A stretch of 64,000 nucleotides of DNA, taken from NCBI GenBank assembly GCA_965112155.1, contig OZ218100.1; one strand, written 5' to 3'. This document shows, one piece after another, positions 3,367 through 63,677 of the stretch (positions are counted from its first letter, which is position 1; the number at the start of each line of letters is the position of its first letter). The stretch comes from Podarcis liolepis. Taxonomy: Eukaryota. Made by a program: the position numbers and the translations under genes. The notes beneath the pieces are model-generated. The model saw only the letters and a list, made by a program, of their open reading frames with translations, was not told where the DNA came from and ran no database searches.

Positions 3367-3718
3367 GTTCCTACACACAGGAGGAACAAGTGAATAGGGC
3401 TCCTATTTCTTGTGTCAAGTAGATTGTGGAGAGATGGAGTTGTATTCAGTAGATTCCATGCGCAGGATTCAACTAATGCTTCATTCTTGTGGAAACCTAT
3501 GCAAGGACTTCTGCAAGAGCAATGGGATTTCCCCCACTTCTATGCAATTGGCTTGGGATAGTGTGAAGAGCACACTGAGAAAAGCATGGAAGGAGATAGG
3601 GATCGTTCTGTCTGGCAACCTGAATTTTTTTGTGCTGACAGAACGATTGCCATAGACCTTTAAAGTATTGAACTCCTCCCACTGAAATGAATAACCCTAA
3701 GTTAAGTCATGTCTATTA

Positions 3719-3930
3719 CAGTGGTACCTCGGGTTACATACGCTTTAGGTTACAGACTCTGCTAGCCCATAAATAGTGCTTCAGGTTAAGAACTTTGCTT
3801 CAGGATAAGAACAGAAATCATGCTCCAGCGGCACAGCAGCAGCAGCAGGAGGTCCTATTAGCTAAAGTCGTGCTTCAGGTTAAGAACAGACCTCCGGAAC
3901 GAATTAAGTACTTAACCCGAGGTGCCATTG
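3719..3930 (+). mobile_element. Tc1/mariner(pogo/Tigger)-type MITE, family A
   Basis: TIR CAGTGGTACCTCGGGTT...AACCCGAGGTGCCATTG, TA on both flanks; related copies at 15503, 25564, 29095, 55284, 63435. Confidence 0.85.
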
Positions 3931-6562
3931 TAATTTCAATGGGTCTAATTCTGAGTAGGAATAGCATTTGATACCATCCAAAGTTATTATATCTTATATA
4001 AAACCATAGAGTTGGAGGGGACCTTTTAGGCTTTCTGGTCCAAGCTTTGCTTAGTGAAGGAACTACAGAGCTGCAGCCTCTCCTTAAAAATGTTCACTGA
4101 GGGACAGCCCACTTCCTTTCATTTAACAGATCAGTTAACAACTGAATGTTAGATTGACACCAACTCACAGCTGCTTCTGATAATACTTGTTGCTTTCACA
4201 GGAGGGCACTCACAAATCACTCCCATTAAAAAACATGGTAGACATTCTGTGCCACAGACATTATTTGTTCTGAAATTTGCAACTTTCTTCTGGATTTGTG
4301 AATGGTATTGGCGTTACTGTTTTCGTCAGGGAAATTACTCTCCTGTTATTAGAAAAGGTGATCTTGGGATTCAGCAGTCAACAGATGCGGTAACATGATA
4401 CCACTGTGTGCTGGTAAGGTTTTCTATCAAGACTCTGAAAAATCCAAGAGCATAAAATATCAAAAAACTAGTGTGATACTGCTAAGCAGGTAGGACAGAA
4501 GGAAACAGGATCCATGGTGAATATGCCACACTCATTCCCCAACCAAGAGAAATCTAGTTTTGCCCTCTAACAGATTTTATCTGGGATGGTGTTTATGCAA
4601 GAATTATAGTGCAATCAAGGCAAAACTCAATTATGCTTATTGTTGTTCAATCCAACAAATTTGCCGTGCTGGATTATGTATACTATAAGTTAGGAGAGCT
4701 AAGTGTGTGTTTTTTTAAACAGAAGACAATTTACAACATGCAACATCTCCTCCAGGCTGTCATTGCTTATTGCTGCAAAGATCCCACCATGACTTTGCTG
4801 AAACCAATTTTACAGGATTTTGCAACATGTCAAGCAATATCCTGAAATAGCAATAACAAGTACTGTACCTAGAACAATGACTAAGACTTTTACAGCAGAT
4901 TAAGGAGCATAAGACTATCAGTGGCTACTAGTCATGTTGCCTGTGTTCTACCTCCACTGTCAGAAGCTGTATCCTTCTGAATGCCGGTTGCTGGGAAATA
5001 CTAGCAAGGAATGATTGAGAGCAACACCATGGGAAGGGTCTTTCCAGGTATCCCAAACCCCTGCTTTCGGAAGCCTTGTAATATGCCACTGTAGGAAAGG
5101 GGCTGCGAGCAGCATCATGGGAGGGTCGGTTTGGACTTCTCCATGGGAGAGGTTTCAAGGAAAGAAGGTGAAGCTTTCAAGCTCTCTTGTTGTTTCTGCT
5201 GTTATGCTATTATATTTGCAGCATTGAAATGTTCTTTGTATGATGCTTTATATGCTATTATAGTGCTGTTTTATTAGTATGATTTTTTTGTGATTGTCGT
5301 TTTTGAGACGCTGCTCTTTTTGTTGTAAATTGCTTTGTGCATGATTTTTGTGTGTGCAAAGGTGGCATAAAAATTAATTATTATTATGAGAGTGATGTTG
5401 CTGCACTCAGGCTCTGCTCGTGGGCTCCCTATAGGCATCTCGTTTGCCATGAAGAGAACAGGATACTGGACTAGATGAGTCTTTGGCCTGATCTAGCTCG
5501 GCTCTTCTTTTGATTTAAATTTCAGTGTAACTATTGCTCAGAAACCCATTCCATTTCAGAGACACCCTCTAACTCCAGTGCTCATGCCAGGTTATTTTAT
5601 TTTATTAAAATGCTAAATCAAGCATAGAACAAAATAATCACAGAAAACAGGTATTAAAATATCAAAGCAGAGACCGGGGTGGGGGGCGCAGACATCAGTA
5701 ATGTACTCTAGACTTTCAATATAATACAAACTATAACAAGTCTATACAAATAAAAACACCATTCCTTATTTTCAGGGGGCAAGGTGGGTTTCCATCACAC
5801 CATTGTCTGTGAACCTCTGCACATATTCCTACTCTATTGTTTTATCCACAGCTCATACCAGTTTTAAACCTGTATCTGAATCTTATTTGAATTAATAGTT
5901 TATTCATCAACAGGGCACTTGCGACTTTCTGCCTCATAACTTCAAAGGATAATAGTTTGTCTATTTCCCATGTCGACAACATTTGAGCGATTATTAAAAT
6001 GTCCCCATCATGTTATTTCTTACTTGTCATTTTAAAGTGAAATTCTCCTTCAAAGTTAAATTAGCTAGAACAGAAGCTATATGCATTCTAGTAAATTCCA
6101 TTTTTTATTATTTCAGCAAGCCTACCTAAACATATAATCTATTTCCACAGAGGTGTGTCTGAATTTATTATGCATCGAATGCTGAAGATGCACCTCTTCA
6201 CTCTAGCCTTTAGAGATACGGTATATTATTAAGGACCCACCCTATTCCTGGCTGTACTTTGTTTTAAATTGTTTTTTTAATATTGCATTGACAAACCACG
6301 GTAAGCTGCCTTGGGACCTTATGGTGAAGTGCAAGTAAGAAATTTAAATCGTCATCATTTTGCAGAGTGGTGTGTTCGCTCTGTGTTTGGACACCTCATA
6401 AGATGTAACCTAAATGTGCATGGTTTTCATCTGTGAGGATGCAACTGCCTGCCATTTTGAATCAAGAAGGTGGACCCAAAACTTTCAAAACTGCACTGAT
6501 TTTTTGTTTTATTAGAATTCCAGAGCAATGCAAGTTATGAGGGTGCTAGTAATAACAACGTT

Positions 6563-6924
6563 GGGACGCGGGTGGTGCTGTGGGTAAAACATCAGCGCCT
6601 AGGGCTTGTCGATCGCATGGTCGGCAGTTCGAATCCCCGCAGCGGGGTGAGCTCCCGTCTTTTGGTCCCAGCTCCTGCCCACCTAGCAGTTCGAAAGCAC
6701 CCCTAAGTGCAAGTAGATAAATAGGTACCGCTTTATAGTGGAAAGGTAAACGGCGTTTCCGTGTGCTGCTCTGGTGCCGGTTCACCAGAGCAGCTTCGTC
6801 ACGCTGGCCACGTGACCCGGAAGTGTCTCCGGACAGCGCTGGCCCCCAGCCTCTTAAGTGAGATGGGCGCACAACCCTAGAGTCGGACACGACTGGCCCG
6901 TACGGGCAGGGGTACCTTTACCTT
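6563..6924 (+). mobile_element. Sauria SINE, full length
   Basis: GGGACGCGGGTGG head, GTTCGAATCC B box, GGGGTACCTTTACCTT tail; near-identical to reverse copy at 52696-53063. Confidence 0.9.
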
Positions 6925-7569
6925 ACATTTCTTTTAAGTTTTTATTTTATTGTTTTTAAAATTTTATTATGTATACTACATTGATTAAATGATTTATAAA
7001 TCCAGCGGCAGACTTGGGGGTCTCAAATTTCTGTGGTGCCTTGTGCAATGCTAAAATTTGGCCTGCCCATTCTACATTATTGTTGCACCGACCCTTGCAG
7101 TGCCAGAGCCCAGTGCAACTGAACTGGTAGTGCTACCCTAAAACCGCCTCTGAACAATCATTCTAAATACAAACACATCTTTTCTGAATTATAGAGGATT
7201 AGGCAGAATGGCTGCAATTAGGAACTAGGAAAGCGAGGACACACCCTTTTCCATCCTGGGAGGCCCATTATATATGACAGTTATAAAGCTATTGATGCTG
7301 GATCAAGGTTGGCGCTGTAGGCAGCAATAAGACAGAATTTGCAGCTGTTGCTCCAGAAAAAAACAACGGCCTATAAACCACCTAAGAATCTGTACTTAAA
7401 TATACCAAAAAGAAAACACATCCCTTGGGGAAGTTGCACAACACCCCAGAACGATGTCTTAAATCACGGGAATATTGTTAAGCAATGCAGTTATTAATGT
7501 TATTACAAACGTTCAAAAAACGCAGTGGCAAATGATAAAACAATAACGGGACCTTCCTTTCGTGATGAA

Positions 7570-8460
7570 AATAAAGGAATCGCATTGAGGCAGCACCAGG
7601 CCGAGGCCTGAAAGCCGCATCCTTTGACCCGAAGCGACTGCCTCCGCTCCCGTATAGCGGGGTGGACAGGCTAGGCTGCGATGCCCCGCCGCGCGGAGGG
7701 GCAAAAGCGCTCTGTACGTGCTCAGAGGCGCGGCTCGCCTTTTGGCCCTCCTCGCGTGACACCGAGTGAGAGACCCCGACACGGAGAAGAAGAGGAGGAG
7801 GAGGAGGAGGGGGCCGAGGCGGAGTTGCGGGTGGGGAGGGGGCGGCGAGAGAAAGAGAGAGAAGCAAGTAACATGTTGGGTCATGTGGTTGCGTCACGTG
7901 AAAGGGGAGTCAGGCCCAGCAGCAGCAGCAGCAGGACCGAGAGACAGAGACACAGACAGACTCTGGACTCCGGGCTGGTTGGGGAGGAGCAACGGCAGGC
8001 AGACGGGGCTGGCGGGGCGGAAGCCACACAGGACGAGCTCTAGTGGCTGCCGCCGGCGCTGCCTGTTTAGTCTGCTGCGCCCTGGACGGAGGTAAGGAAT
8101 TGGCCTGTCTGTCTGTGTGTGTGTGTGTGTCCCATTTTCTTTTAACTGCATCCACCCACCCTATTAGCTGCTATGTGGACACTGGATCCCTCTCTCTCTT
8201 TTCTTTCTTCTTCTCTCTCCCCCCTCCTCCAATTGCATTCCCTCCTGGCGGTATGATTCTCCCTTCCCCGCGGGAGGAGGATGCAGGATCTCTGTGTATG
8301 GGCGGGAGAACCTCGTCAGGGCTGATGTTGGTGCCTATAAAATCCTGCCCATCTCCCCTCCATGTCAGATCAGATGCTCCGGCTGCTTGTGAATGTTGAG
8401 GTATTTTATTTGTTTGTTTTTCCTCTCGCGATGGAGCAGGGCTGCTTCTCGCTCGGCAAG
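7570..8460 (+). promoter_or_regulatory. TULP4: CpG island / probable TULP4 promoter
   Basis: Dense CpG and high GC against a CpG-poor background; overlapping half-CRE/E-box TGCGTCACGTG at 7890-7900; GC boxes; followed by a strong splice donor; next recognisable coding sequence on + is TULP4. Confidence 0.7.
7760..8091 (+). other. TULP4: Putative non-coding first exon of TULP4 (5' boundary approximate)
   Basis: GGAG|GTAAGG consensus donor at 8091/8092 at the 3' side of the CpG-dense core; the TSS cannot be placed from sequence. Confidence 0.6.
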
Positions 8461-10278
8461 AGATTTCGTGTGGCTTTATTTTCATTTCCTCTATTATATT
8501 CATTATTATTAATTTTTTTTAAAGGAGAGGGTGGGCGAGAAGAGCGTGGGACCACTGAAAGCAGCAAAAATACAGGCTGCCCAGAGGTGTGGGGGTGGAG
8601 GCGATTGGGGTCGGGGTGGTGGCTGTGGCGGGTGGGTGGGTGAGTAGGAAGGTGGCTGTGTGTTGTTGTGTCATGCAAGGAGCCAGGTGGCTTCTGGTTT
8701 GTGGTTCTTTTGTTCTGATGGACCACCTTATTTTGCCCCCCCCCTTCAGGGTGCGCTGTTTTTGTCTACAGTCTTGCCTGCCAACTAGCCAGCCATCCAG
8801 GAGGCTATGTAGGAAAGGAGGCAGTGACTGGAATGGAGCCCCTTGTTTTGCTTGTGGTGTAGGTTTGCAGCAAAACCACCCCTCTTTCCTCTTCTCAAAC
8901 CCCTTCCCTGTGCTTCCTTCCTATGTGTCTTGCCATTGAATGAATTTTTATTTTCTGAACCTTCCTGTGTAATATAGCTTGCTGGATGGAATATACAGCA
9001 TTGCTAAAGATGGACCTGGCAGTAGCTGCCAGCTTTAAGGACAGAAGAAAGAAGGAGAAACAGCATTAGTTATTGTCTGAAAAATACTGATGTCATTTAC
9101 CTGTAGTGCTGGACTTATGGCTAAGTCTTGTTTTGATCTGGATGTTTTTGCTACCGTGTTCCACTTCTTACAAATGATGCTAATTTATGCACAATTTGAA
9201 AATGGGATCACTAAACCTTTTACCTAAAAAACTTAGGAGATAGGGAACAAGTAATCAATAAGGTCCTGGGAAAAAGATTCTGTGAGCTTTTTCTGCTACT
9301 ACAACTAATCAGACAGTGTGATAACTTTCTCAGCTCTAGGTTAATAGGCAAGATCTCCAGCCCTGTCATTTTCTTTCTAATGCTTGTTTATTTCAAATAT
9401 AAAGGAGAGTTGGTGATGGACTTGCCAGGTTACCCCCCACCATAGCTGGTACATATATCTGTGTTTAGTTATTCTTGCAAAGTGCAGGAATAGTTTTGAC
9501 TAGGTAGGCAATAGGATGTAAAGGGAGAACTGTTGGCCATACAACTATATGTTACGTAGCATGTTTCACTGGCAGGTCCATTTTATCATGCTGAAATTTG
9601 TCTGCCCAAGGCATCCCTTTCTTAAGCCACATGCTGTGCTCTCAAATGAGAGGCTTTGGTGTTTGTATTCTGATGGGGTTTGCAACATCAAAAACCAGAC
9701 ACTGGCAAAATTAGTTTTAAATGCCAGCCTTTGCAAGACAAGTTTGTGAAGCGGAAGATGCTGAACTAAAAGCTTCTCATGCTTCCTCATCCCTCCCACT
9801 TAATCAGATTTAAACGGATGGTATCAAAATAAGAAAAGTAGCCCTATCATTTAGCATAGTATGGTTGCAAGCTCTGAAAATTATTTCATGTTCATGATTC
9901 TTCTGATGAGGTTCCTAGAGTTTTCTAGTTTTACTAATATTTCATTTACATTGATATTTTCTTTAAATAAAAATAATTTTAAAAATAAGATTAGGTTTAT
10001 TCATCATAGTTTTGCATAAACTCTAGCTGAGAACTAGAATAGCATATGGATTAAGAATCAGCTGTGGGCTAGGACAGTCCCAGTTCACATCTCACCTCTG
10101 CTATGAACTTAGCAGACAACTAAGCTACACTTCAGGCTCAGTGTACTGTCTGTGTTATGAGGATAATAATACTGGAGTATGATGCAGGGCTGTTGTTCAC
10201 TGAGCTAGGAAATGTGCTATCTAAATATATTAGTATTATAGTAGTAATAATAATGACTGCCTTATTATTGATGTAGAT

Positions 10279-10412
10279 CAGGGCTTCCCAAAGTTGGGTC
10301 TCCAGCTGTTTTTGGACTACAGTTCCCATCATTCCTGACCACTGGTCCTGCTAGCTAGGGATGATGGGAGTTGTAGTCCAACAACAATTGGAGACCCAAC
10401 TTTGGGAAATGC
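10279..10412. mobile_element. hAT (Charlie/Buster-like) palindromic MITE
   Basis: CAGGGCTTCCCAAAGTTGGGTCTCCA...TGGAGACCCAACTTTGGGAAA inverted ends; internal GGACTACAGTTCCCATCAT/ATGATGGGAGTTGTAGTCC arms; same family as 16899 and 27280. Confidence 0.75.
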
Positions 10413-14900: not shown

Positions 14901-15502
14901 ATTACCTGTGAGACTAACTCACTGCGAACACCTTTTTAGGTGTCAGTGTACACTATTTGTGTTGCATTGTCCATTCATTACCAATTAGGAATAGGCTGCT
15001 TGCTCTGATTTGATCTTCTGTTTCAGGGAGGGGGTTCAAATATATCCCCACATGCATCGGAAGAAAGTGTGAGGTGTCCATAGGGCGGCTTGGACTGGCT
15101 TTGCCTCCTACCAGTTACGTACCCCAGAGCTATGCTCCTTCTGGCCATGTGCACATTCAGTGTACATGGATATATGCACACATGTACCAATGTATGCATG
15201 TAGAATTCCACATGGGGGGCGGGTTCTGATTAACCCAGAGGACACTCCCCCCTCATGTGGAGGTGCTCTCTGTATGCACAGCTGTATGCTTGTAGGACCT
15301 TTTCTCATGTGGGATGAATGTGTATGCCCAGCTTGGTATGTGGCCGCCTTGCACATTGGTAGTTTGGGGGTGGGGGAGGCTGATGGGGGAAGCAGCTGCC
15401 CTCTCAAAAAGATCATGTATTTCACTTATATGTTGGGTTGGGCCCTATAATCTTGCTTCATGAAATGTTCTCCCTGCCTGATGCCTCTGTCTTTACCCCT
15501 TA

Positions 15503-15744
15503 CAGTGGTACCTTGGGTTAAGTACTTAATTCGTTCCAGAGGTCCGTTCTTAACCTGAAACTGTTTTTAACCTGAAGCACCACTTTAGCTAATGGGGCCT
15601 CCCGCTGCTGCCACGCCGCCGGAGCACGATTTCTGTTCTCATCCTGAAGCAAAGTACTTAACCCAAGGTACTATTTCTGGGTTAGCGGAGTCTGTAACCT
15701 GAAGCGTATGTAACCTGAAGCATATGTAACCTGAGGTACCACTG
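15503..15744 (-). mobile_element. Tc1/mariner-type MITE, family A (reverse orientation)
   Basis: TA|CAGTGGTACCTTGGGTT...AACCTGAGGTACCACTG|TA; internal sequence is the reverse complement of other family-A copies. Confidence 0.88.
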
Positions 15745-16847
15745 TATGAGCATTTTCCTTAGAAGAAGTCAAGGCAGCCTACATTGCTCTTCCTTTCCCC
15801 TCACAACAACCTTGTGTGGTAGGTTATAATTAGAGGCAGTGATAGGCCCCAGGTCACCCAGTGCCCTCTGTTGCTGAGTAGAAGTTTGAACCAGACTCTG
15901 CAGTATGAGTCCAACCGCTATACTTCGATGGGAACATTTTTGGCTCTGTGGGCCCTATGTTTATCTCCCTCCACCCCCACAGGTCAACTTTGATGGGTGG
16001 GGCTACCCACCTGCCCGTCATCTGGCATCATGATGACTTGTGCTCCTGGGGAGTGGACTCTGCTTCAGCAACATGTTCCCTGTAAGGAACACAGTGGTGA
16101 AGCAGCACCCAGTTAGACTGAACCCTGCCTCTGCAGGAGGTCATGGTTGGGGGAGGGGAATGGCTTTTCAGGCCAACTTGGACCTCCTGGTGGGCCAGAA
16201 TTGGCTCACAGGCCAGAGGCTCCCCACTCCTGCACTATACCATAACTGGCTCCTGTGTTTTGTATAAAATACGCCAGCCAAGGATCTCAGTCTGTGCATC
16301 TCACAAAGTACACTTCGGTCCACAAGCAGTGTGTTAGTCTTTGCTGCAACAAATTGATGGAGCTACACCTCTAGAACATATCAAATATCTCTTTTTGAGA
16401 TACTAAAGGAACTGTGAAACAATTTACTGCTTAATAAACAAATCTACAGATCACAATTTGAAGGAAAGGCTTGTCTTTTCATATTTGTTTCATTTCCTAT
16501 GTTACAGTAACACACCAGAATCAAAATAGCCTCAAAAAGTGTGTCTTTAACTCTCAACCCTAGCAATTAAAGGTTGCCCTCACTGATTAAAATTGATCTT
16601 AAAGCTTTAGCTGATTAATCCACTGATTAAACCAATTAAAGTTTGCAGTAGTCATTCAGTTATTTGATATGAGAGAGAGAGGGGGGAAATAGGAGGACTG
16701 GCAGCAAGCGAGTCACTGGAAAACAGTTGGGTTTTCCTTACATATTTCCGCATGTATTTCTCGCTGGGCCACTAGTTGTGGTGATGGGCTTCCACCTTTC
16801 TGCATCAGTCCAATACTGAAATAACAGAAAAAGCTGCATGAAGCAAT

Positions 16848-17138
16848 GTAGAATGATACAATTGTAGAGTTGGAAGGAATCCTGAGGATCATCTAGTCCA
16901 GTGTTTCCCAACCTTGGGCCTCCAGCTGTTTTTGGACTACAACTCCCATCATCCCTCGCTAGCAAGACCAGTGGTCAAGGATGATGGGAATTGTAGTCCA
17001 AAAGCAGCTGGAGGCCCAAGGTTGGGGAACACTGATCTAGTCCAACCCCCTGCAATGCAGGAATATGTAGCTGTCCCATACGGGGACTGAACCTGTGACC
17101 TTGGTGTTATCAGCACCATGCTCTAACCAACTGAGCTA
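16848..17138 (-). mobile_element. tRNA(Ile)-like SINE with CR1-type 3' tail, interrupted by a hAT MITE
   Basis: Minus strand: TAGCTCAGTTGGTTAGAGCATGGTGCTGATAACACCAAGGTCACAGGTTCAGTCCCCGTA head, then GGGGTTGGACTAGATGATCCTCAGG..CCTTCCAACTCTA CR1 tail. Confidence 0.7.
16899..17034. mobile_element. hAT (Buster-type) MITE, 136 bp
   Basis: TIR CAGTGTTTCCCAACC / GGTTGGGGAACACTG (1 mismatch); perfect 8-bp TSD ATCTAGTC (16891-16898, 17035-17042) with central TA. Confidence 0.9.
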
Positions 17139-17938
17139 TGTAGGAACATAAGAAGCTGCCTTATACGAGTCGGACCCGTTGGTCTGTCTAACTTGGTATT
17201 GCCTACACCAGGGACAGCCAACCTGGTGCCCTTCAGATGCTGTTGGACTAAAACTCCCATCATCCTTCACCATTGGTTATGCTGGCTGGGGCTGATGGGA
17301 ACTGTAGTCCAACAGTGTCTGGAGGGCATCCCATTGGCTACCCCTGGTTTACACTGACTGGCAGGAGCTGTCTGGGGACATTCCCAGCCCTATGTGGGAT
17401 CGTCTTCTGTGTACAAGGCAGATGCTATGCCGCCGAGTTATGGTCCAAAATGGAACAAAGTAGTGGAAGAACAGGAAAAGCTAACCATTGATGGCTATTC
17501 TGTCACCCTCTCTCCGTGGCCATTGCTTCTCCTTTAAAGGAGAGATGAGCATAGCTACTGGGAGAACTAGCTAGAGAAAGGAAAAAACTTTGCTGAGGAG
17601 CAGTAAGAGAAACAGGCGAGGAAGCAACAAATTCAGGGGTCCAGAAAACTGCCTGGGAGTAGCTAATCTTACCCCCAAATAACCCAGCTCCTGCTGCAGT
17701 GTTGACAAGAATGACATGCATTTAAGAGTTAGTACTCCAGCCTGCTGGAGTTAATAATGGGCAACCCCTTTGGATAATGCGTTGTGTAGGAGGACGAGCC
17801 ACCAGCTTCAAAACTGCAAAGCTATTTTAAGAGTCTTTATTAAAATTGAACCATATTTCACTGGAATCTACTCCCTGGCCCTTCTGTTAAAATATCTCAT
17901 TAGCACCAGTTTATCATTGAATTTTGAGCTTAATATAG

Positions 17939-19869: not shown

Positions 19870-22363
19870 CCCACAAGCCTAAAGTTGCTCCCCCCCACTT
19901 TTTAAAGGATATCCATTGTGCCAAGCAATTTCTCTCTGTAGTTAACATTACTTTTTTAAAAAAACCTACTACAACTACATTCAAATGTATTTCTCTGCAG
20001 AGCAATAACAAATGCATTCTATCCCTTTTGGTATTTCATTAGATTCTCAGAATCAGTGAGTACGTAGTACATCACCTCTCTAGAGGTGTATCAGGCCACT
20101 GTTGTTCTGTAGGAGCACTCAAGCTGTGGGTCAGCTTAATATGAGCTTAGGCAGGGTTGTTGACTTATAAAAAGATGCTTAGTACATGAATTGCTTTTCT
20201 TTTGATGGGAAGCACTGAAACTCGTTGGACTGAAAGACACAGTCTAAAGCCAATGTTCTCGGACAAAGATGCAAAAGAAAGCAGGCTTGCATGTTAGTCC
20301 ATAAACATCATTTTACCAGCCCACATGCCCACATTTATTAGTCATTGACTAGGTGGATTTAAAAGGGGATTAGACAAATTCATGATGGAGAGGGCTATCC
20401 ATGGCTCCAAGCCTTTATGGTTGTGCTCTGCCTCCAGCAATGCTTCTGAATGCCAGTTGGTGGAAGCCACAGGAGGGGAGAGTATTCACCTGCTCAAATC
20501 CTGCTTGCTGGTTTCCCACATGCATCTGGTTGGCCAGTGTGAGAACAGGGTGCTGGACTAGATGAACCATTGACCAGATCCAGCAGGCTTTAAAAAATAC
20601 TGCCTTGCTCTTAATTATAAATAAATCAAAGGGGCTTGCAAGGTTCCCAAAATATATAAAACCTAATAAATACAACAAACCCAAAATATCTGAGGTCAAT
20701 ATTGTATTATAAAACTAAGAGCAGGTTAAAATGATGAGAGTTGTTTGGCAGTGGAACAGTCTATCTACCTCAAGAGGTATAGTGGGTTTTCTGTCGCTGG
20801 AGGTATTCAGGCTGAGGCCAAATCGGTCAGAGGTGCTGTAGTAGCATCCTGCACAACAGATCCTGTGCCAAGCAGAGATTGGTCCAGATGACATCCAAGG
20901 TTACACTCAGCTCTTTGATTTTATGAAAACAATTCCACATAAAAGCAGGGATGCAAAAACTCTAATCTGCATTGACCTGCATCGAATGTGTGAGAGTGCA
21001 GGTTTCTGGGGAGGAGATTGTGGCTGCTTTGCTCTTCCTCTAGTCATTCTGTTGTGAGCTAAGCTATGGTTTGGCTTAATATGCCCTCTGAACCCAGATT
21101 CATGGTTTATATTGCTCTGCCTTTCTGGTTTACAGCTTGTGGTTTGTCAGAGACAGGCTGGTGCAAACCATGGCTTAGTTAACAGCAGCAAGAGCAAAGT
21201 GTCCCTGATCTTCTCTTGAGGAGACTGCATGTCTTCCATGCTCACACTGATGTCTTGGTTTGGCTTAGCATTGTGTGAAAAATGAACTGTTAAATGCTTG
21301 GAGAATGAAAAGCTCTTAAAAGCCCATCTAAAGCTTTCAAAACAGAGAGCCAACCACATCTCTGGATGGCAGGAGTTCCATTCCCTGTGTGCTGTAGTAA
21401 AAAAAGTTGCTCTCACTTATGCAGATTAGAATTTCATTAAAAACAAAGGGAGTATTTTCCAATAGACAGGGCAATAACTACAAAGATGCAATGCCATGAG
21501 AATTCTATTCTGACTAATTAAAAGTTGGTACCTCTTTAATGAGGTATTTTATCTTGTGCAAGAAAAGCAGGTACTTGTCAGTGGTCTAACACAATACAGC
21601 GTGCCAAATCCTAGTATGTTTATTGGTAGAAGGTAATGCAGAAAACTACCATTCTTGGAAAGTGCCAAATGTTGCCAAAATTGTATTTAGTGTTTTTATA
21701 CCCTCAAATCTAGAGCAAAACCCTCTTTTAAAACAAACTTAAAACAAACAAATCAACATATAAATTCTTTTAAAAAAAGACTTACCTAAAATTAGAGGAG
21801 GCCAGAGCAAGATGTTACAAGTTTGAGGGTGGAGTTTGCTCACATCTACTTGAGAGAAAACTGTTTTAATACCAGCTGTACTATCTGGTGTATGTTTTCC
21901 CCGTGAAAGGAACATTCACCCAAGTGTTGGGGGGGGGGGGAAGGCGGAAAAGCTTTCTCCCAAGTGGCATTAGGTACTTAGAGCAGTGTTTCCCAACCTT
22001 TTTTGGGCAAAGGCACACTTGTTTCATGAAAAAAATCTCGAGGCACACCACCATTACAGCCCCGTGACGTCAGCGCGCAGCGTCACACTGGGAGGGACGC
22101 ACGAAAGTGTAAGTTTCAATTTTTTCCCCTCCCCCTTGCCTTCCTTCTGTGCCAACCGCCAAAAAGCCAAGAATCGCGGGACCGCCGGCGGAGGGGGGGA
22201 GGGCGAGCGGAGGCAGCGGCGAGCCCTGTTCCTCCCCATCCGCCCCATTCCGTGCAAGGAGCGCGAACAGGTGTGAGAAGGGGGTCAAACCTGCGGGTCG
22301 GCGCCGGGGAACCTCCAAGCTTTGGGGGTGGGGGGGAGGCAGCAAAGCGAGGCAGGAAGGAGA

Positions 22364-22483
22364 GCGCGGCTTGGCGAAGTACTCGGCGGCGAAGGCCAGC
22401 AGGTCCGGCGGCCGGTGCCGCAGCACCTCCACCGTGTAGCCCTGCAGCAGCTCAGTCAGACCCGGCGGGATCTCGATGCTCAT
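22364..22483 (-). pseudogene. PRKAR2A: Captured 5' coding fragment of cAMP-dependent protein kinase type II regulatory subunit (RII-alpha-like dimerization/docking domain); start of a 137-codon chimeric ORF 22483-22070
   Basis: [40 protein letters not shown] matches the recalled RII N-terminus (human RIIalpha [41 protein letters not shown]); PPG, GYT, PPDL and EYF favour PRKAR2A over PRKAR2B; similarity stops abruptly after codon ~40; no later exons in the window. Confidence 0.85.
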
Positions 22484-22990
22484 CTTGTAGCCGAGGCGCG
22501 CGGGAGACTCAACAGACGGGCCCGGGAGAGAGAGAGAGAGACACGACGGAGAGAGAGCGGGAGTCCCTGCTCGCCGCCGCCGTCGCTACAACTACTGTGG
22601 CGGTTGGTCGTGGCTGTCGCCGCCGCTGCCCACCTCTATCTATCTCTCCCCCTCAGCTTTCTACACGGGCCTGGAGCCGGAGGTGGGGGGTGGCCGCCAC
22701 CGCTTTCTCCGCCTCCACGTCCTGCCTCCTCCTCCTCGAGCCCTCTGTCAGCCCTGAGGGAACCACCGCGCTCGCGCTGCCGCTCTCTGACACGCGAGAA
22801 ATAGAAAGGAACGGAGTGGCGGGGTAGTCGGGGGAAGGAGGGGCCGGAACGGAAGCGCGAGGCGAGCTGCGCATGCCCAGCAGGAAGCGGTGGAGAGCGC
22901 CACAGAGAGAGAGAGAGAGAAGCAAGGGAGGGCGGGGAGTGGGCGGGAACACGCTTCATGCGTCACAATAACGGACAAGGGGCGCTCGAG
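22484..22990 (-). promoter_or_regulatory. Captured CpG-island promoter and 5'UTR upstream of the PRKAR2A-like ATG
   Basis: CpG-dense; ETS-type CCGGAA/CGGAAG 22844-22855, NRF1-like TGCGCATGCC 22868-22877, GC boxes 22930-22946, half-CRE TGCGTCA 22959-22965; Kozak ACAAG-ATG (A at -3). Confidence 0.65.
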
Positions 22991-25563
22991 GGATAGATTA
23001 GGACCTAATTTGACTTTTACCAAAAAAAAAAAAATCTTTTTAATTTTTCCCACGGCACACCAGGCAACATCTCGCGGCACACTAGTGTGCCGCGGAACAG
23101 TGGTTGGGAAACACTGACTTAGAGTAACCTCCTATCTCTCAAGCTTATAGCTTACATCTGCCCACGTTGCTTCATCTAGACAGGCACCTGGGAAAACTCT
23201 GTAACCATTGCCTTAGGTTCTGACCCAGAGCTCTTTCACCCATAGCTTCCCCAAGATTCAAGACTCCTGGCAATATATAGCAGCTTCCAGGAAATCCCTC
23301 GGTAATTAATAATTGCCCTAATTGCCCAATTCTAAATGGCTGGTGAATAATCCTTTCTTGGGCATGTCAAGGTCTATGCTGTGCACCAGCTATCTTGTTC
23401 CAGATGTTATGAAGCAGCATATTGAAGGTTTCAATTGATTTCCCTTACTTTCTTTAGTTCTGTGTTGTTTGCTCCCCCCGCTCCTTATTTCTAGGAAAGC
23501 TATGAAAAAAGGGTACTTTGCTCTTAGGGTCTGCAGCAAGAAATTGTGTTTTTCTGTGTATGTGTTGTACAAAAGCAGAGGCTACAATTGTGTAATGGTC
23601 TATTGTGGAAGGCCCATTCTCTTGCGGTAGGTTGCCCTTTAAAAGGTACTTTGTGTAGCAGGTGGTTTAGGAGATGGTGAGGAGATTCTAAGAAATGGGA
23701 GTTGAAGAGATTCAGAGAAGGAGGCTTGAACATTTGAAAGAGGAAAAGAGAGCTGAGGAGGCGGCAGAGAGAATTAGCCAAAAGAATCATCCAGAGCCTA
23801 ACAGTGCAGGAGAAAAATGAAACCACCTAACCTGGTAGCATTTATCCAGCAGCAGCTTCACCGTCTGGGAGTCTGAATTTTATTGAGATTCATCCCTCCT
23901 TTTTGGATTAAGGTTAAATACTTGCCTTAAATTGTATTTCACCAGAGTTGTTTCCCTTTCTCCCCCCTCCCCCTGCCTCAGCTTATTAAGTAAATCCAGC
24001 TGTTACTTTCCCATTTTAGTGAGTTGACTGCTAGTTTCCTCCTGTATACTTTCTGGAAGTGAAGGGACTGGAAGTGCTGGGTGCTAATTTGGGGCCTTGG
24101 CATTATGTCTCTTTACATAGTTTTGAAGCGAAATACCTAGGATCCATAGATCCCTTGCCCCCAAACAAATTAGTTGCTTGTAGGGAACTTGGGTCATGGC
24201 TGTTTGTTTGTTTGTTTCTACAAATAAATAATAAATTCTCACTGTCACATTCTGCCTTGAATTACCAGATTCTGAACATGCTGTGAGTGGCTGGAATACT
24301 GCCTGGGCAATATGGGGTGCTTCTCCTTTCTCCAGGGTTGGGGATATTTTGTCACTGTTTGTTGTATATCTTCCTTCTGCCATTCCTATGCTCTCTCTCT
24401 TTCCCCCAATCTCTCTTGCTTCAGATGGCAGAATAAAAGTATTCTCTAAACTGAAAGAGATTCCTAATTCAAGGTCCCTTGCCTAGCTTTCTGATAGGGT
24501 CTGCATCTGATAAACCGATGATTCTCTGCTTATGTCTGCATGCCTTTCCTGTCCCCTGCTTTGCACTGGTGATCAGGGATACAATATTCTTTGGCAGGGT
24601 TGCTGCTGCTGTACATTATTGGTTAGCAAAAAGTCTGATTAGCAATGATGGTGCCAGTTGTAGGCTGCCAGCTGTGAAGTAGTCGGGGCTGAAATGCCAT
24701 GTGGGGTTTCATCAGCCACTTTTTATGGCTATGGCTGAGAAACAAGGCTCCTTTTCATTTTATATGAGTAGCAATCCCCTGGAATATGATCCTGGGATAT
24801 TAATGCTGTGCATTAAGTATGATTAGGGAACTCTCCTGTCTTCAACAGTCTCTTGAATTGCTGCGTATTGTTACCGTGCCATTAATGTGATTCATCAGCT
24901 TTGAAACAGCTTGTCCATTGCAAAGGAATTATGTGAATGTATTAACTTTGTAAAGCTTTTTGAAGTTCTGCTGGCAATAATCAATATGAAGCCATGCCCA
25001 AGGCTTTTAAGGCAATTTGGCCATGCTCTTTTCTCTAGACTGAATTGCTTTTTCCCATGGAAGTATTAGTGAAGAGATAAGAAGTGATAACGTTATTGCA
25101 TTTAGCGGGTGACAAGAGTGCCAGCTGCACAGCAGTAATGCAATAGCGTAGATGCAAAGTCCTCAACATCAACAGGTGTGTATGTTTCCCCTTCACATAG
25201 GGCTTAGAAAGCATGGAAATTCTTCACCACTCGCCTACTATTCACCCATGGAACAATTCCTGAGAAATCATTTGACATCTTTCACCACCACGGTTGCATT
25301 CATATCTTTTCCCTGTTGGTGTCTTGCAGTGTAATTGTTTCTCCAGTTTTTAGGAAATGTTAGTGCTTTGGACACAACTGCAGAACAAAGCTTTCAGATG
25401 GGAGCACACTACTATTTCTTCGAGTCTTGAGGTGCAGCTTTTGATGTGGCCGGTGACAGCATGCAACCCTGCTTCTTTGTCATCTCCCAGCGCTTCTATC
25501 AGTGCCTTCCCCACCCTCTGTTCAACTTGCCAGTGGTGTGTGTGGCAGGTGGGGAGGGAGGTA

Positions 25564-25804
25564 CAGTGGTACCTCGGGTTACATACGCTTCAGGTTACAT
25601 ACGCTTCAGGTTACATACGCTTCAGGTTACAGACTCCGCTAACCCAGAAATAGTACCTTGGGTTAAGAACTTTGCTTCAGGATGAGAACAGAAATCATGC
25701 TCCGGTGGCGTGGCAGCAGCAGGAGGCCCCATTAGCTAAAGTGGTGCTTCAGGTTAAGAACGGACCTCCGGAACAAATTAAGTACTTAACCCGAGCTCCC
25801 ACTG
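25564..25804 (+). mobile_element. Tc1/mariner-type MITE, family A
   Basis: TA|CAGTGGTACCTCGGGTT...AACCCGAGCTCCCACTG|TA; tandem 16-bp GGTTACATACGCTTCA units near the 5' end. Confidence 0.88.
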
Positions 25805-25974
25805 TATGTCAGTTTCACAACTGCCTTGTTGGTTTCACAGTGATAGGGCACTCAAATTTCCATTTAAAAACAAGTCCCCTCTTTAGAACAGCAGCAGTGG
25901 TGGTGCAATTAATGTAATTTTGTCTTCTCTTTGGTGAATCCCATTTGTTTCTTGTGCTGGCTGGCAGAGGAACA

Positions 25975-27140: not shown

Positions 27141-27279
27141 GACAAACAGTCCAGGCTGTAACTCTGCTGTAGTTTTAGTCCAGATCAGACTCCCACTCTT
27201 TCTTTTAATTATGGACAGATTACATTTACATGGGGATTAAGTAATGCACAATTAGCACTGAACAGGACTGGGATTAGTG

Positions 27280-27415
27280 CAGGCTTCCTCAACTTCGGCC
27301 CTCCAGATGTTTTGATATTACAATTCCCATCATCCTTGACCACTGGTCCTGCTAGCTAGGGCTCATGGGACTTGTAGGCCAAAAACATCTGGAGGGCCAA
27401 GGTTGAGGAAGCCTG
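27280..27415. mobile_element. hAT (Buster-type) MITE, 136 bp
   Basis: TIR CAGGCTTCCTCAAC / GTTGAGGAAGCCTG; perfect TSD GATTAGTG (27272-27279, 27416-27423). Confidence 0.9.
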
Positions 27416-29094
27416 GATTAGTGCTACCGTAACTAAAACATCTGCTGTTGCTTGGAAGCACCCCTGCTTGTGCATTCCCCCCTGTCACTTCTGCAACAAG
27501 GTTTTGAAGATTTGAGATGTTGCAAAAGGCTGCATAGCTTATTAACCGTCTGTTGTGGTTTACCAGGTGCTTAAATTTCTAAAGAGGAAAAGTAAAGTCA
27601 AGACAAGAATATCAAGCAACTAGGCTTCATCTTTAGCAATGAAGATGGAGAAGCCTTTAACCTTTATTTGACCATTGCAAAAGTCATTGTTTATCCTAGA
27701 ATTAGTAGCAACCCCTTTATCCTCTACCCTGATATAGCTACATATCTCCAGTGCTGGCATTGCATCTGAACGGATTCCGGTCCCAATAGCCATTGTATAT
27801 CATAAGGCTGCTCTAGGTTTCTCACATACATGGTGTGGTCCTGCCTACATTTTTTTTTATATACTGGGAGATGAAATAAGTCCATGTAGACCAGTAGAAT
27901 AGCTATGGAAGTAGCTTTGTGGCCAGCTGGGGAAGACTGAAGAGCAGAGTCCACATGGCTTGTAAACTGAAGATGCCCTATCTTCGTCATATATTAAGGA
28001 AAGGAAATAACTTGTGATAGTCATTCAAATAACTCTGATGGCCCTCTTTGAATAGGTAGTTTTTGTCTTTGTTAATTGATTGGGTCACTACCCTGTAAAG
28101 ATATGATGATGGCAAGATCTCTGAGCTTTCACAGGCTACAAAGGCATCTGGGCTACAGCTGTCCTGATTACACAACTCAGGTCTGAAATATTGGCCTTGT
28201 TCAGTTTCCTTTTCTTAGACAAAAAATATCCAACCTGCTACTCATTCTGATGGACACAATCATGAAAAAATTCATTTGTATAGTAAGTAGTAGGTACGAT
28301 GAAGCCTGCTCAAATACCCCATTAACATATACTGTATAGTAAAATTTATCCACCTAGCATCTGCCCAATCAACATCAACTGTGTGAAATGCAGAGCATAA
28401 TGTTCACCAACTGGCTACATGACTATTAACCAAGACTTGAAATGCAGCTGTGATATGGCCATGGCTCTCAGTTCTTTGTTGTTTGTCACTTTGAGGCCTC
28501 AGAAAGTACTTTGCCTTAAATCTTAATCATGATTTCACAGCTCAAGAGCTTGATGTACAAGATGGCATTAAACCTTGCTGGTAGTTTCCCCCTTTTCTTT
28601 TTTAATCCATTATGCGCTTCACATCTCTTTGCATGTGTCATAAATTGATATAAATAACACATGTTATTAATTCAGAAGGAAATTGCCCAAATAAATCAGG
28701 CAGCTTGGAACAACATGGAATACTGGTTAAACAATTGGGCATATTTTGTGTCTCTGTACAAGATGTGTTGAGGTGAAATTGGTTTTTCAATTTGTTTCCT
28801 CTAATGGATAAAACCCAGTTAAAGCAACCAAACCAAGCTGTATGTAGCATTATCAGCTTCTTATTCAAGCTGATCAAATCCCAAGTTCCTCATAAAAAGA
28901 GCACTCCTCAACAATATGTTACAGTATTATACTAAAACAAACATGCTATTTGAACTCTATGTATTCCACACTAAATTAGATCATACAAAGATTTACCCAT
29001 CCAAAAACAAATTTAGATAGCCAAGGGGGCCCTAAACTGATACATTCAAAGTAAATTGCGACGGTGCATGTTCCTTGGAAGCAAGCAGCATTTA

Positions 29095-29567
29095 CAGTGG
29101 TACCTCGGGTTACAAACACTTCAGTTTACAGATTCCGCTAACCCGGAAGTACAGTCATACCTCGGGTTAAATATGCTTCGAGTTGAGCGCGTTCGAGTTG
29201 CGCTCCTTGGCAACCCGGAAGTAACGGAGCGCGTTACTTCTGGGTTTCGCTGCTCACACATGCGCACTCAAAATGACGTCATGCACATGCGCAGAAGCGA
29301 CAAAAAGCAACATGCGCGTGCGCAGACGTGCCATCGCTAGTTACGTTTACCTCTAGATGTGAACGGGGCTCCGGAACGGATCCCATTCGTATCTAGAGGT
29401 ACCACTGTAGTACCTCGGGTTAAGAACTTTACCTCAGGATGAGAACAGAAATCGCACGGCGGCAGCAGGAGACCCCATTAGCTAAAGTGGTACCTCAAGT
29501 TAAGAATGGTTTCAGGTTAAGAATGGACCTCCAGAACAAATTAAGTTCGTAACCAGAGGTACCACTG
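29095..29567 (+). mobile_element. Family-A MITE interrupted by a second Tc1/mariner-type MITE (29152-29407)
   Basis: Outer TA|CAGTGGTACC...GGTACCACTG|TA; inner TA|CAGTCATACCTC...GAGGTACCACTG|TA; removing the inner element and one TA restores the AACCC(G/A)GAA-TAGTACCTCGGGTTAAGAAC consensus. Confidence 0.85.
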
Positions 29568-31339
29568 TACTTGGAAGCTCCAGTTGCTTTGGTGAGGGGT
29601 GTGGGTGGGGCAGAGAGAGCGAGAAGAGAAAGCAACTTTTAAAAGTAGGATCACAAATTTTGCTTCCTTTCCTCCAGTCTTTGAGGAAGACTAGTCAAAG
29701 GAAAAGCACATAAATGCCTTTGCTTTTGTAGACTTCCCCATCTGAAAGATACAACTGAATGAGTGGGAGATAATGCATAGATTCTTCCCTCGCCTCTCCT
29801 CCCACTTGTCTTTGGGAACCTCAGATTTTCTCAGAGCCTCTTGATTAGAAGTAGGAGGCATTTGGAAAGACTCTGGAATAGTACTATTTATTTTTATTTT
29901 ATTTTATTTATATACTGCCCTTCATCCAAGAAGTTTACAACAAAAAGCATTCTCAGAAGTGGACAGTCTTGTGGAGAGAGCACTCAGTGTACAGTGCCTG
30001 CTTGTGGAGTTGTATCATCCATAATACTTTACTGGTTCTAAATGCCGCACTAGTGGGGCTTTGCTGTGTGCAGTGTGATTGTAGCTATGCACACTTGCCA
30101 AGTCCAAAAGCTAGGTAGTATCTTCACTTCCATGCATTATCTCTGTGCAATGTAGGCAAAAGCATTATTCATTTTGTAAAAAGAGATCTTACAGTAAGAA
30201 TATTTCTGCTGAGGAAATTCTGCCTTGTTCTGCGTAACCAGAAAATCGAATATTTTGCATACACTTTTGCTTTCAGATTCTTCTGTGTGGCAAATACTGT
30301 TGGTTTCATGTACTATGATTGGAAAGTAACTTCTTTTTACTGGCCCGAAAGTGTTATAAATTGAATATCCTTCCCTGTTGAAGGACGGGTTCTCTGTGTA
30401 AAGCAACTGTGCAAGTAATCTTTAAGGATCTTTTTCTTTACTTTCTTTTAATGCAATAAATGCATATTTCCCCTCATATGTTGTACATGGTATGGCCAGT
30501 TTCCCTGAGAGTAGCACTTTTGTCATGGAGATATTCTATTTTCTGAGTGTGCAATGTATATCTTGTATGGGGGACAGGGGAGGGGGACATGATATTCCTG
30601 ACCTAGTTCATAAATTAGTACCATGTTTGCTCGTTGGACTGTGGTACCAACAGGATATTGTTTGTGATGACCTTGTTACCAAATATTTGGTACTTTTTAT
30701 TTATTATTTATTTGAAGGCCATGTGCAGGGAGGGGCATAGCAGCTTTCTTCTTGTACAACCAAGCTATCACCTCATTTTTTATTTTTTTTTAATGTGTGG
30801 GTGAGATATTGCCATGTAGTCACAGAAAATCCTCATAAGGATGATTGTATCAGATGTAATATTCTTCATGTTATCAGAGCATCTTTGTTTATTTTGAAGC
30901 CTCCAGAAGTCCTCAGTACTTACATTTATATGAAATGTGGGCTTGGAGAAACAGGAGAAGGCTCCTGGAATGTTAATAAGCAAAATCAGCCCTCTCCTAT
31001 CAGGTCATATAGGCCAGAGGGGCTGATTAGAAGGTTTTAATCAGCAAAGTGGATGTCAACAGGGTTGGTATTCTAAAATTAGGAACTGATTACCTGCAGC
31101 TGACATGGCCACATGTCATTATTTAAAATCTAGTTTCTTAACATCTGCCTTCACAGTATTATACATTGCCACCCACAGGCTGTTGCTGAGGAGAAGCCTC
31201 TGAATGAGCCTAAAAGTATACAGAAACCTTTATTTGCCTGCATAGACATCCAGAAAAAGGGGGTTCTCTTTTACCAGGGAGACCAAAATGGACAAACAGT
31301 TGCTTAAGAGCTGGCCCTGGTAAAAAAGGGGAGGTGAAA

Positions 31340-40774: not shown

Positions 40775-41452
40775 AAAAGGATCTAGGAGTCTTGGTTGAC
40801 CACAAACTTGACATGAGCCAACAGTGTGACGCGGCAGCTAAAAAAGCCAATGCAATTCTGGGCCTCATCAATAGGAGTATAGCATCTAGATCAAGGGAAG
40901 TAATAGTGCCACTGTATTCTGCTCTGGTCAGACCTCACCTGGAGTACTGTGTCCAGCTCTGGGCACCACAATTCAAGAAGGACACTGACAAACTGGAACG
41001 TGTCCAGAAGAGGGCAACCAAAATGGTCAAAGGCCTGGAAACGATGCCTTATGAGGAACGGTTAAGGGAGCTGGGCATGTTTAGCCTGGAGAAGAGGAGG
41101 TTAAGGGGTGATATGATAGCCATGTTCAAATATATAAAAGGATGTCACATAGAGGAGGGAGAAAGGCTGTTTTCTGCTGCTCCAGAGAAGCGGACACGGA
41201 GCAATGGATCCAAACTACAAGAAAGAAGATTCCACCTAAACATTAGGAAGAACTTCCTGACAGTAAGAGCTGTTCGACAGTGGAATTTGCTGCCAAGGAG
41301 TGTGGTGGAGTCTCCTACTTTGGAGGTCTTTAAGCAGAGGCTTGACAACCATATGTCAGGAGTGCTCTGATGGTGTTTCCTGCTTGGCAGGGGGTTGGAC
41401 TCGATGGCCCTTGTGGTCTCTTCCAACTCTATGATTCTATGATTCTGTGATT
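40775..41452 (+). mobile_element. CR1 LINE, 5'-truncated young copy (ORF2 C-terminus plus 3'UTR)
   Basis: Uninterrupted ORF 40792-41370 with [45 protein letters not shown]; CR1 tail with (ATTCTATG)n. Confidence 0.95.
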
Positions 41453-52695: not shown

Positions 52696-53063
52696 AAGGT
52701 AAAGGTAAAGGTACCCCTGCCCGTACGGGCCAGTCGTGTCCGACTCTAGGGTTGTGCGCCCATCTCACTTAAGAGGCCGGGGGCCAGCGCTGTCCGGAGA
52801 CACTTCCGGGTCACGTGGCCAGCGTGACGAAGCTGCTTTGGCGTGCCAGCACCAGCGCAGCACACGGAAACGCCGTTTATCTTCCTGCTATAAAGCGGTA
52901 CCTATTTATCTACTTGCACTTAGGGGTGCTTTCGAACTGCTAGGTAGGCAGGAGCTGGGACCGAACGACAGGAGCTCACCCCGCTGCGGGGATTCGAACC
53001 GCCGACCATGCGATCGGCAAGCCCTAGGCACTGAGGTTTTACCCACAGCGCCACCGCGTCCGT
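52696..53063 (-). mobile_element. Sauria SINE, full length, reverse orientation
   Basis: (AAAGGT)n at the left end; 12-bp TSD CATTTTCATGTA at 52684-52695 and 53064-53075. Confidence 0.92.
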
Positions 53064-54771: not shown

Positions 54772-55283
54772 GCTGCTGTTGTCTTGTTGGGCTGTGTATG
54801 TGATAAAGGATAACCATACCAGGGTGAAGGCATCCTCTTCTATTTGTCCCCGTGTCAGTTTCAGTTTGTTGGTTAGTTTTTTGAACAAAGAGGCATAATG
54901 CCTTTGTTTTTAGAGTCAAGCTGGGATAGAGTGGTTTCCATCCCCGTACTGGCAGTTTAAACCTCAGCTGCCCAGCTCAGCACTGCAATTGGGATGCAGA
55001 TCGCCTCCTCTCTGCTCATTGGCTCAATCACTTGAAGAATAGGGAGGGATGCAAAAGTCAGTTGAAGTGGGGGAGACTGTGTGCTTGTGTACATGGTGTG
55101 CGTGCATGTGAGAATATGTCTCTGTGTTGGCCACATGCACAGCTGACATGCAGCCCCCAGAGAGTTAGCCAAGAATGATTGTGGTCCTTGGGCCTAAAAC
55201 AGGTTAGCCCACCCTTGCGTTGCATGCAGTAAGTGCCATTTTGGAAGAGACATTCCCTTATGTATGCTGTATAAATGAAAGTA

Positions 55284-55509
55284 CAGTGGTACCTCGGGTT
55301 ACAGACGCTTCAGGTTACAGACTCTGCTAAAACAAAAATAGTACCTCGGGTTAAGAACTTTGCTTCAGGATGAGAACAGAAATCGCGTGGTGGCGGCACA
55401 GCAGCAGCGGGAGGCCCCATTAGCTAAAGTGGTACCTCAGGTTAAGAACAGTTTCAGGTTAAGAACAGACCTCCAAAACAAATTAAGTTCTGAACCTGAG
55501 GTACCACTG
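55284..55509 (+). mobile_element. Tc1/mariner-type MITE, family A
   Basis: TA|CAGTGGTACCTCGGGTT...AACCTGAGGTACCACTG|TA. Confidence 0.88.
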
Positions 55510-56544
55510 TACCGGGAAATGTCTCTTCTCAGGTTGTGCCTGCCACCTGCACCTTTCATAAGAGCTTGCATTTAAATAATATTTTTTCTTAAAAAAAAAC
55601 GGCTTGCACAATTAATTGGGGATACCTTTTGCTTTTTTTAAAAAAAGATTTAATTGCTTTAATCAACTACAGCTGCAAGCTTTCAAGATTATCCTCTTAG
55701 ACAGGGTTGGGCTAGAAGAAAGAAACAAAACATTCCATCTTAGGAGGTTCTGCCAAAAATAACTGGAATAAATTACAGTTAGGAATTAATTTACAGAATG
55801 GAAATGAAAGCTATGAGACTTGGACGTTCCTTTAGAAATCTATGAGACTAATGATTTTATTTGAGAAATGGACCGTCAATCTTTTTCTTCACCGAGGTTT
55901 TAAAAATGCCAGATATTGTATAACACAGCTCTCATGTCTGTTGATGTGGCCATAGCTTTCCAAAATAATTTTTTCTTCCTCAGCTCTCCATTCATTCCTG
56001 TGGGGCTCATGCAGAATACGTTGTTGTTGTTGTTGTCATTTTTTTAATAGTGCTTAATTGTCAGAACCTCTAAGCGGTTTACATAGAATGCAAAACCTAC
56101 CTTAAAATTGTCAATAAAAGTCAGGTGTTGGTAACAAAAAAGAAGTTAAAACCGTAAAAATTCCAAGTATAAATAAAGCCTGTCATTAAATATATACTAA
56201 GCTAGAAATACTTGATATGAAAGACTGTGGTTACACCAGCAGATGTGAGAACTTTGTTATAATACTGTATTGTGGCACATCTTCAGACTTAGGAATGAGA
56301 ACAAATGGAAGCTATTGAATGTACATTTTGCAACTCAAATTTTTGGTCTCATAGATCAAAGGGTTGCTAAAGGGTCACATGACTTAGATTTTATTCTGAA
56401 GCTTAATTCCTAACTATAATTGCTTTATATTTATTGTATTCTGCATTTTCTTGCAGTGTGGAATGCTCTGTCTGGTAATATAATAACTAGGTTATTATCG
56501 AAGAGAATCACAGACACATGGAAAAGGCTAGTTTTATTCCGCAG

Positions 56545-63414: not shown

Positions 63415-63434
63415 ATGCACACAAAAGCTCATTG

Positions 63435-63677
63435 CAGTGGTACCTCGGGTTACATACGCTTCAGGTTACATACGCTTCAGGTTACAGATTCCGCTAACCC
63501 AGAAATAGTGCTTCAGGTTAAGAACTTTGCTTCAGGATGAGAACAGGAATTGTGCTCTGGTGGCATGGCAGCAGCAGGAGGCCCCCATTAGCTAAAGTGG
63601 TGCTTCAGGTTAAGAACAGTTTCAGGTTAAGAACAGACCTCCGGAACAAATTAAGTACTTAACCCGAGGTACCACTG
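63435..63677 (+). mobile_element. Tc1/mariner-type MITE, family A
   Basis: CAGTGGTACCTCGGGTT...AACCCGAGGTACCACTG|TA; the left flank is TG rather than TA. Confidence 0.88.

Follow-up and report, generated by a model that had tools for sequence, protein, structure and literature searches.

The mobile element and its reading frame

The window, by which we mean the whole stretch of 64,000 nucleotides from Podarcis liolepis analyzed here, contains a transposon-like element whose minus strand carries an open reading frame of 137 codons. The following features describe the locus:

21976..21983, no strand assigned: left target-site duplication ACTTAGAG with TA in its centre, an exact copy of which lies at 23117-23124
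21984..23116, no strand assigned: non-autonomous hAT-type element, 1133 bp, 62% GC
21984..21998, no strand assigned: left terminal inverted repeat CAGTGTTTCCCAACC of 15 nt, fully complementary to the right one at 23102-23116
23102..23116, no strand assigned: right terminal inverted repeat, 15/15 complementary to the left repeat
23117..23124, no strand assigned: right target-site duplication ACTTAGAG, matching the left one exactly
22484..22995, minus strand: CpG-rich leader, likely the 5' UTR and core promoter of PRKAR2A; about 510 bases, upper boundary approximate
22070..22483, minus strand: chimeric ORF of 137 aa, PRKAR2A residues 1-36 followed by an unrelated tail of 101 residues, among them 16 P, 13 L, 12 A and 12 G
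22376..22483, minus strand: captured PRKAR2A coding start, codons 1-36, which cover helix I of the docking/dimerization (D/D) domain and the beginning of its helix II
22364..22375, minus strand: joint zone, codons 37-40, A-K-P-R versus the parental G-R-L-R; protein identity stops at codon 36
22056..22375, no strand assigned: second GC-rich piece, which encodes the 101-codon tail; left boundary approximate
22065..22072, no strand assigned: perfect palindrome TGACGTCA, its first three minus-strand letters being the stop codon of the ORF
21619..21624, minus strand: flanking AATAAA with a GT-rich stretch after it, 360 nt away from the element; likely chance

The inverted ends of the element open with CAGTG, in agreement with the YARNG motif, and the 8-bp duplication is perfect. 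As 8-bp duplications and YARNG termini are the marks of hAT elements in lizards (PMC3014272), we assigned the element to the hAT type. The single target site has TA at positions 4-5, as in the Buster/Charlie consensus (nnnTAnnn for Buster, PMC3517528), although one site matches this pattern by chance in 1/16 of cases. With 97 CpG the element reaches a CpG observed/expected ratio of 0.88 versus 0.30 for the window, a near-undepleted state that is compatible with a young copy and equally with an unmethylated, active one. The longest frame in the 1133 bp encodes 265 aa, which is too short for a hAT transposase, and no second copy of the element was found within the 64-kb window. Close to either end GGCACAC is repeated, perhaps as a binding site for the transposase. 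A perfect 22-nt palindrome is located just internal to the right inverted repeat (23073-23094).

Several other repeats are present in the window. A family of palindromic MITEs of about 136 bp occupies 16899-17034, 10274-10409, 27275-27410 and 17205-17340, and as the copy at 16899-17034 has its first 17 nt in common with the end of the element, one transposase may serve both. An abundant element of about 250 bp with TACAGT ends (3716-3933, 15493-15746, 25561-25806, 29092-29576, 55281-55519 and 63432-63686) is presumably a MITE of the Tc1/mariner type, and a CpG-rich repeat of 350 bp, found in three copies that are 86-94% alike (393-748, 6563-6924 and 52701-53055), is likely a squamate SINE. A 197-aa open frame at 40777-41370 showed no Pfam match at E<=0.001 and looks like the C-terminal part of ORF2 from a CR1 LINE.

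A sequence-only reading of this DNA had described an open frame of 137 codons with its start in good context and its stop inside the mobile element, and all of this could be confirmed: the frame runs on the minus strand from the ATG at 22483 to the TGA at 22072-22070, within 21984-23116, and an A is present at -3 (TACAAG-ATG-A), position +4 being A and not G. No upstream ATG occurs between 22874 and 22483, which leaves the start preceded by 390 bases free of ATG. The same reading had pointed to an AATAAA on the minus strand about 450 nt past the stop. Its position is right (446 nt), but the hexamer lies outside the element and at chance level, as an AATAAA is expected 40% of the time in 450 nt and the window contains 144 of them on both strands. 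Being located 360 nt outside the element, it would not be shared by other copies. Within the element no poly(A) hexamer follows the stop of the ORF, and a crude scan found no strong minus strand donor after the RII codons (best <=0.6 downstream of the ATG).

The captured PRKAR2A start and its probable copies in Podarcis

Residues 1-36 of the ORF are identical at 36/36 positions to RII-alpha of Podarcis muralis, P. raffonei, Lacerta agilis and Zootoca vivipara (P0123-P0126), its nearest relatives of full length, supporting the earlier proposal of a chimera between the docking/dimerization start of RII-alpha (PRKAR2A) and unrelated sequence in a mobile element. The lengths originally given to the two parts, about 40 RII codons and a 97-codon tail, have to be changed to 36 and 101 in the light of the lacertid parents. 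At this boundary the lacertid parent reads ...EYF-GRLRETRDQ, and since all four proteins continue with GRLRE the chimera departs from them at codon 37. The joint had been placed at 22364; identity already ends at F36 (22376), which puts it at about 22375 and makes 22364 its latest possible position, the protein comparison locating it only to 22375-22364. It had also been considered probable that the parent reads KLR, whereas 4/4 lacertid parents read GRLR. A point mutation from KLR to KPR was therefore rejected. As codons 37-39 contain three replacements and codons 1-36 none, a joint, perhaps with partial microhomology, explains the change better, and A-K-P-R versus G-R-L-R at codons 37-40 may represent such microhomology.

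A tblastn search with the parental protein (E<=1) matched residues 1-40 and nothing further of PRKAR2A in the window, and thus the locus is not the working gene. On the same match we rejected the possibility that the tail represents the remainder of exon 1 in another frame. At the protein level, both P. muralis and P. raffonei possess RII-alpha in its full length.

For the tail, a search among 1.84 billion representatives returned only P0002 (see below) and one repeat-rich chance match to a tandem-repeat protein, and an Atlas search for the source of the piece gave no usable match. A Bradykinin match in Pfam (E 0.056, below the cut-off) and two matches to designed Kelch proteins were discarded as compositional. 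The palindrome at 22065-22072 is a CRE, and a donor-like GTAAGT is found on the plus strand at 22109. With these two sites the piece at 22056-22375 may be a second captured promoter/first exon that faces the PRKAR2A piece, or else it may derive from PRKAR2A intron 1.

The ORF was compared with 121 short relatives (P0002-P0122). Six of them, all UniRef entries from P. muralis (P0002-P0006 and P0122), have the AKPRSPS joint in common, whereas the AKPR joint was found in no other species among the 121; longer and shorter protein searches added none, the search of 30-74 aa proteins giving three matches that are all solved-structure constructs. The exact 137-aa protein of the window was absent from the protein collection searched. 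P0002 (138 aa) is 94% identical across the whole ORF, and the full frame is open in both P0002 and the window copy. In the five shorter models the frame is left a few residues after the joint, which may reflect splices forced by gene prediction or frameshifted copies. Leader stretches are also translated in five of the six models, several of which start without Met and merge pieces from different leader frames. The six differ in F45, in T17M (two models) and in repeat length; if all stem from one assembly, these differences would require at least three loci and allow six. One further relative, P0025, an unnamed fragment of mammal-type RII-alpha, likewise has proline 39 and diverges at its end; it is unrelated to the element.

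The six entries, annotated as 'RIIa domain-containing protein', are likely to be gene-prediction products of copies of the element. Because they share the AKPRSPS joint, the element is likely a multicopy Pack-TIR, and repeated transposition to several Podarcis loci appears likely as well, as judged from the protein models. It is extremely unlikely that we are dealing with something other than a transposed Pack element, be it a segmental duplicate, a damaged first exon of PRKAR2A or an assembly chimera. One might think of these as the other copies are known as proteins and the window, which extends 22 kb downstream, might end short of PRKAR2A exon 2, but the cargo is bounded by perfect inverted ends and a perfect 8-bp duplication, an independent annotation of P. 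muralis has the intact gene (P0123) next to six models with the same joint, and exon 1 is cut before its end with the remainder absent in every frame. A search of sequencing runs found part of the stretch in 20 of 24 rows (9 studies) and at least half of it in 10 rows (4 studies); these shares are no evidence for the element, as a relative free of it would still have the promoter, the exon, the source of the tail and the flanks. An RNA run containing the stretch was absent from this listing.

The docking domain and the question of a decoy

The sequence-only reading had considered a stand-alone docking domain that could pair with RII or compete for AKAPs. In agreement with its statement that the fragment lacks the inhibitory site and the cAMP-binding domains, Pfam finds RIIa (PF02197) at residues 8-38 with 53.1 bits (gathering cut-off 22.4) and no cNMP (cAMP-binding) domain in the ORF. 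The match covers positions 2-32 of the 38 in the model versus 2-37 in the parent, the score dropping from 56.5 in the parent to 53.1. The best relatives of known structure are D/D constructs of RII-alpha. The residues I3, I5, L9, T10, L13, Q14, T17, V18, L21, R22, F31, Y35 and F36 are all kept as in the parent, and the hydrophobic loop residue of D/D proteins would map to L28. T17 presumably plays a role in the AKAP-binding groove of RII; no literature naming T17 or L21 as AKAP contacts was found. I3, I5, T10, Q14 and R22 are named as contacts in PMC3682517, PMC8339350 and PMC11367651.

What is lost lies in the second helix, which in a construct is restrained over residues 33-49 (PMC11367651), corresponding to 28-44 here after subtraction of an offset of 5. 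Codons 37-44 are replaced in the chimera, which introduces P39, S41, P42 and S43 and removes L39 together with the greater part of the two final turns of helix II. In 120/120 RII proteins position 39 is occupied by L, I, M or V and never by P, and R43 is kept in 117/120. A complete second helix (about 28-44) with a hydrophobic residue 39 is accordingly absent from the ORF, and the proline near the end of this helix, suspected before to weaken folding, is a real defect. The AlphaFold model of the ORF, built from an alignment of 13 rows, has a mean pLDDT of 43.6 and is too weak to be used beyond helix limits; it ends the helix at 37, with residues 41-137 below a pLDDT of 50. The peptide would likely consist of a docking surface, a shortened second helix and an unstructured tail, and would likely dimerize poorly. 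AKAP docking depends on the dimer, so that a peptide which dimerizes weakly would be a poor decoy, although a weak heterodimer may form.

As for the frame itself, when the tail piece (320 nt) was shuffled 5000 times with its dinucleotides kept, 28% of the shuffles remained open over at least 101 codons, and its six frames contain 0-2 stops each. Frame and ATG survive 3% neutral divergence, the value that gives the seven replacements observed against P0002, in 76% of 4000 simulations in which indels were not modelled. These replacements are distributed 0/36 in the domain and 7/101 in the tail (Fisher p=0.19, simulated p of about 0.10-0.13; a single pair with low power). All seven are single-base changes, six of them transitions and two at CpG. 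The difference in length between P0002 and the ORF is one whole codon in a run of C, where slippage by one or two bases would be at least as likely, and this would count against a mere passenger. The unchanged residues 1-36 in the window copy and in 4/6 models point the same way. In favour of a passenger, T17M, found in the other 2/6, is a CpG-type change at a residue kept in 120/120 full-length RII proteins, and the CpG-type changes between copies suggest germ-line methylation of some copies. These tests, which are weak as they use one pair of sequences, give no sign of a frame kept by selection, as openness, survival and the pattern of domain versus tail are all within chance.

These data bear directly on the idea of an R2D2-like decoy born from a transposon, a free-standing D/D protein which would be translated from the ORF, dimerize with itself or with RII-alpha and compete for AKAPs. 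We regard this idea as very unlikely. It would be in line with the native ATG and leader, with the RIIa score and the 13 parental residues from I3 to F36, with a frame that is open in P0002 too, and with the facts that RII(1-45) alone binds AKAPs (PMC3682517) and that D/D proteins can heterodimerize (PMC8339350); Ssk-FB4 of flies provides a precedent for a protein made by a Pack-TIR. On the other hand, the open frame and its survival are what chance would give, L39 is replaced by P and residues 39-44 are lost, two sister models have T17M, no poly(A) hexamer follows the stop within the element while the one in the flank is at chance level, and protein searches show no relative with the joint outside P. 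muralis. A similarly low credibility has to be given to the more far-reaching scenario that an active hAT spreads a self-contained mini-gene of PRKAR2A promoter, leader and docking surface in Podarcis; several copies would be transcribed and translated, and the truncated D/D subunit would pair with RII-alpha and displace PKA from AKAPs in dependence on copy number. If it were true, it would mean that a dominant-negative signalling protein of a vertebrate was born and amplified by a cut-and-paste transposon. Any copy that is translated and pairs with RII-alpha would be a natural disruptor of PKA anchoring, which the present evidence does not favour.

The suggested likeness to R2D2 proteins (SPA17, ROPN1, ROPN1L and CABYR; Dahlin et al. 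2021, PMC8339350) holds for an RIIa domain without cAMP domains, and also for I3/I5, the loop residue L28 and the YF motif, but not for the second helix, where the Pfam match breaks off at model position 32 (37 in the parent). R2D2 proteins are old, conserved and expressed and possess a full helix II, whereas the ORF reproduces RII-alpha 1-36 as an exact copy of recent date that is cut short and is known from Podarcis models only. As a complete second helix is absent, we did not class it as an R2D2 protein.

Origin of the element and relation to known Pack-TIRs

We are fairly confident that the ORF, located in a 1133-bp hAT-type transposon with codons 1-36 of PRKAR2A, is an unselected by-product of the capture joint and that the element has spread to several Podarcis loci. 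A hAT element would have taken in the CpG island of PRKAR2A, with promoter, 5' UTR and the start of exon 1, by repair or template switching. A second GC-rich piece would then have been joined on, or the rest of exon 1 would have been lost by an internal deletion into intron 1, and the composite element would have been mobilised by a hAT transposase supplied in trans. The PRKAR2A frame would run on for 101 codons into the tail because GC-rich DNA has few stop codons, and some RNA may arise from the captured promoter.

The leader of about 510 bases would represent this captured promoter and 5' UTR of PRKAR2A. Within 22484-22995 it contains a GC-box and NRF1-, ETS-, half-CRE- and BANP-like motifs; its folding is not better than that of shuffles (z 1.02). 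Such a cargo could also be seen as a mobile CpG-island promoter, perhaps with a second one facing it, so that each insertion would give a chimeric or antisense RNA which alters its neighbours or the parent via RNA or methylation, the peptide being incidental. We consider this unlikely as the main explanation. The CpG ratio of 0.88 across the element would suit it, as would the GC-box, NRF1-, ETS- and CRE-like motifs in the cargo, but motif matches are common in GC-rich DNA and the CpG-type changes between copies suggest methylation of some of them in the germ line. A CpG island at 7500-8100 has a strong plus strand donor (GAG/GTAAGG at 8092). A host gene may have its non-coding first exon there, with the element antisense in its first intron, and a possible plus strand first exon at about 7900-8091 would give just this arrangement, but no coding exon was found and no host gene was identified, a Pfam scan of 150 of the 153 plus strand frames of at least 58 aa giving no match. 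At least 30% of Pack-TIRs are reported to be transcribed as chimeras in three species (PMC8277862), in favour of such a promoter.

Coming back to capture with an unselected frame as the preferred reading, we compared the element with known cases. In a survey of 100 genomes 370 Pack-TIRs were described, with hAT as the commonest carrier (208/370), only four of them being multicopy (three from frogs and one from alligator) and none being reported for Anolis (PMC8277862, Tan et al. 2021); Podarcis, PRKAR2A or any lacertid are absent by name from 12 supplement files of this work. The defining property of a Pack-TIR, host sequence between TIR ends, is present here with 36/36 residues equal to lacertid PRKAR2A. 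The multicopy Pack-hAT-N8_XT from Xenopus tropicalis is alike in its hAT ends, its GC-rich cargo from the 5' end of a gene and, probably, its several copies, but carries 291 bp of 5' UTR (PMC8277862), whereas the lizard element has about 620 bp with a start codon, most of an interaction domain and a second piece. Ssk-FB4 from Drosophila melanogaster, a multicopy Pack-TIR, likewise combines the upstream region and start codon of its parent with new 3' sequence; in contrast, it contains almost the whole gene and is supported by RNA, peptide and selection data (PMC8277862), while the lizard element contains 36 of about 404 codons and is known from sequence. Closest in host are the non-autonomous hATs of Anolis carolinensis (Novick et al., PMC3014272), which share the 8-bp duplications, the YARNG termini, young copies and extraneous DNA. 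Their filler is often other transposons, unlike the first exon of a conserved signalling gene found here.

In summary, the element is a Pack-hAT of lizards that has captured a start codon together with a CpG island resembling a promoter. It is likely undescribed: no earlier report of a Podarcis hAT with PRKAR2A cargo was found in the open literature, while Repbase, Dfam or subscription journals may catalogue it. It would account for the six P. muralis entries named 'RIIa domain-containing protein', which look spurious. Multicopy Pack-TIRs are rare in animals. A young family of this kind in lizards, with the CpG island, the start codon and most of the dimerization domain of a housekeeping gene as its cargo, would clearly illustrate how a cut-and-paste transposon can shuffle exons in a vertebrate, and the genomic and population resources for Podarcis would allow its members to be dated and counted.
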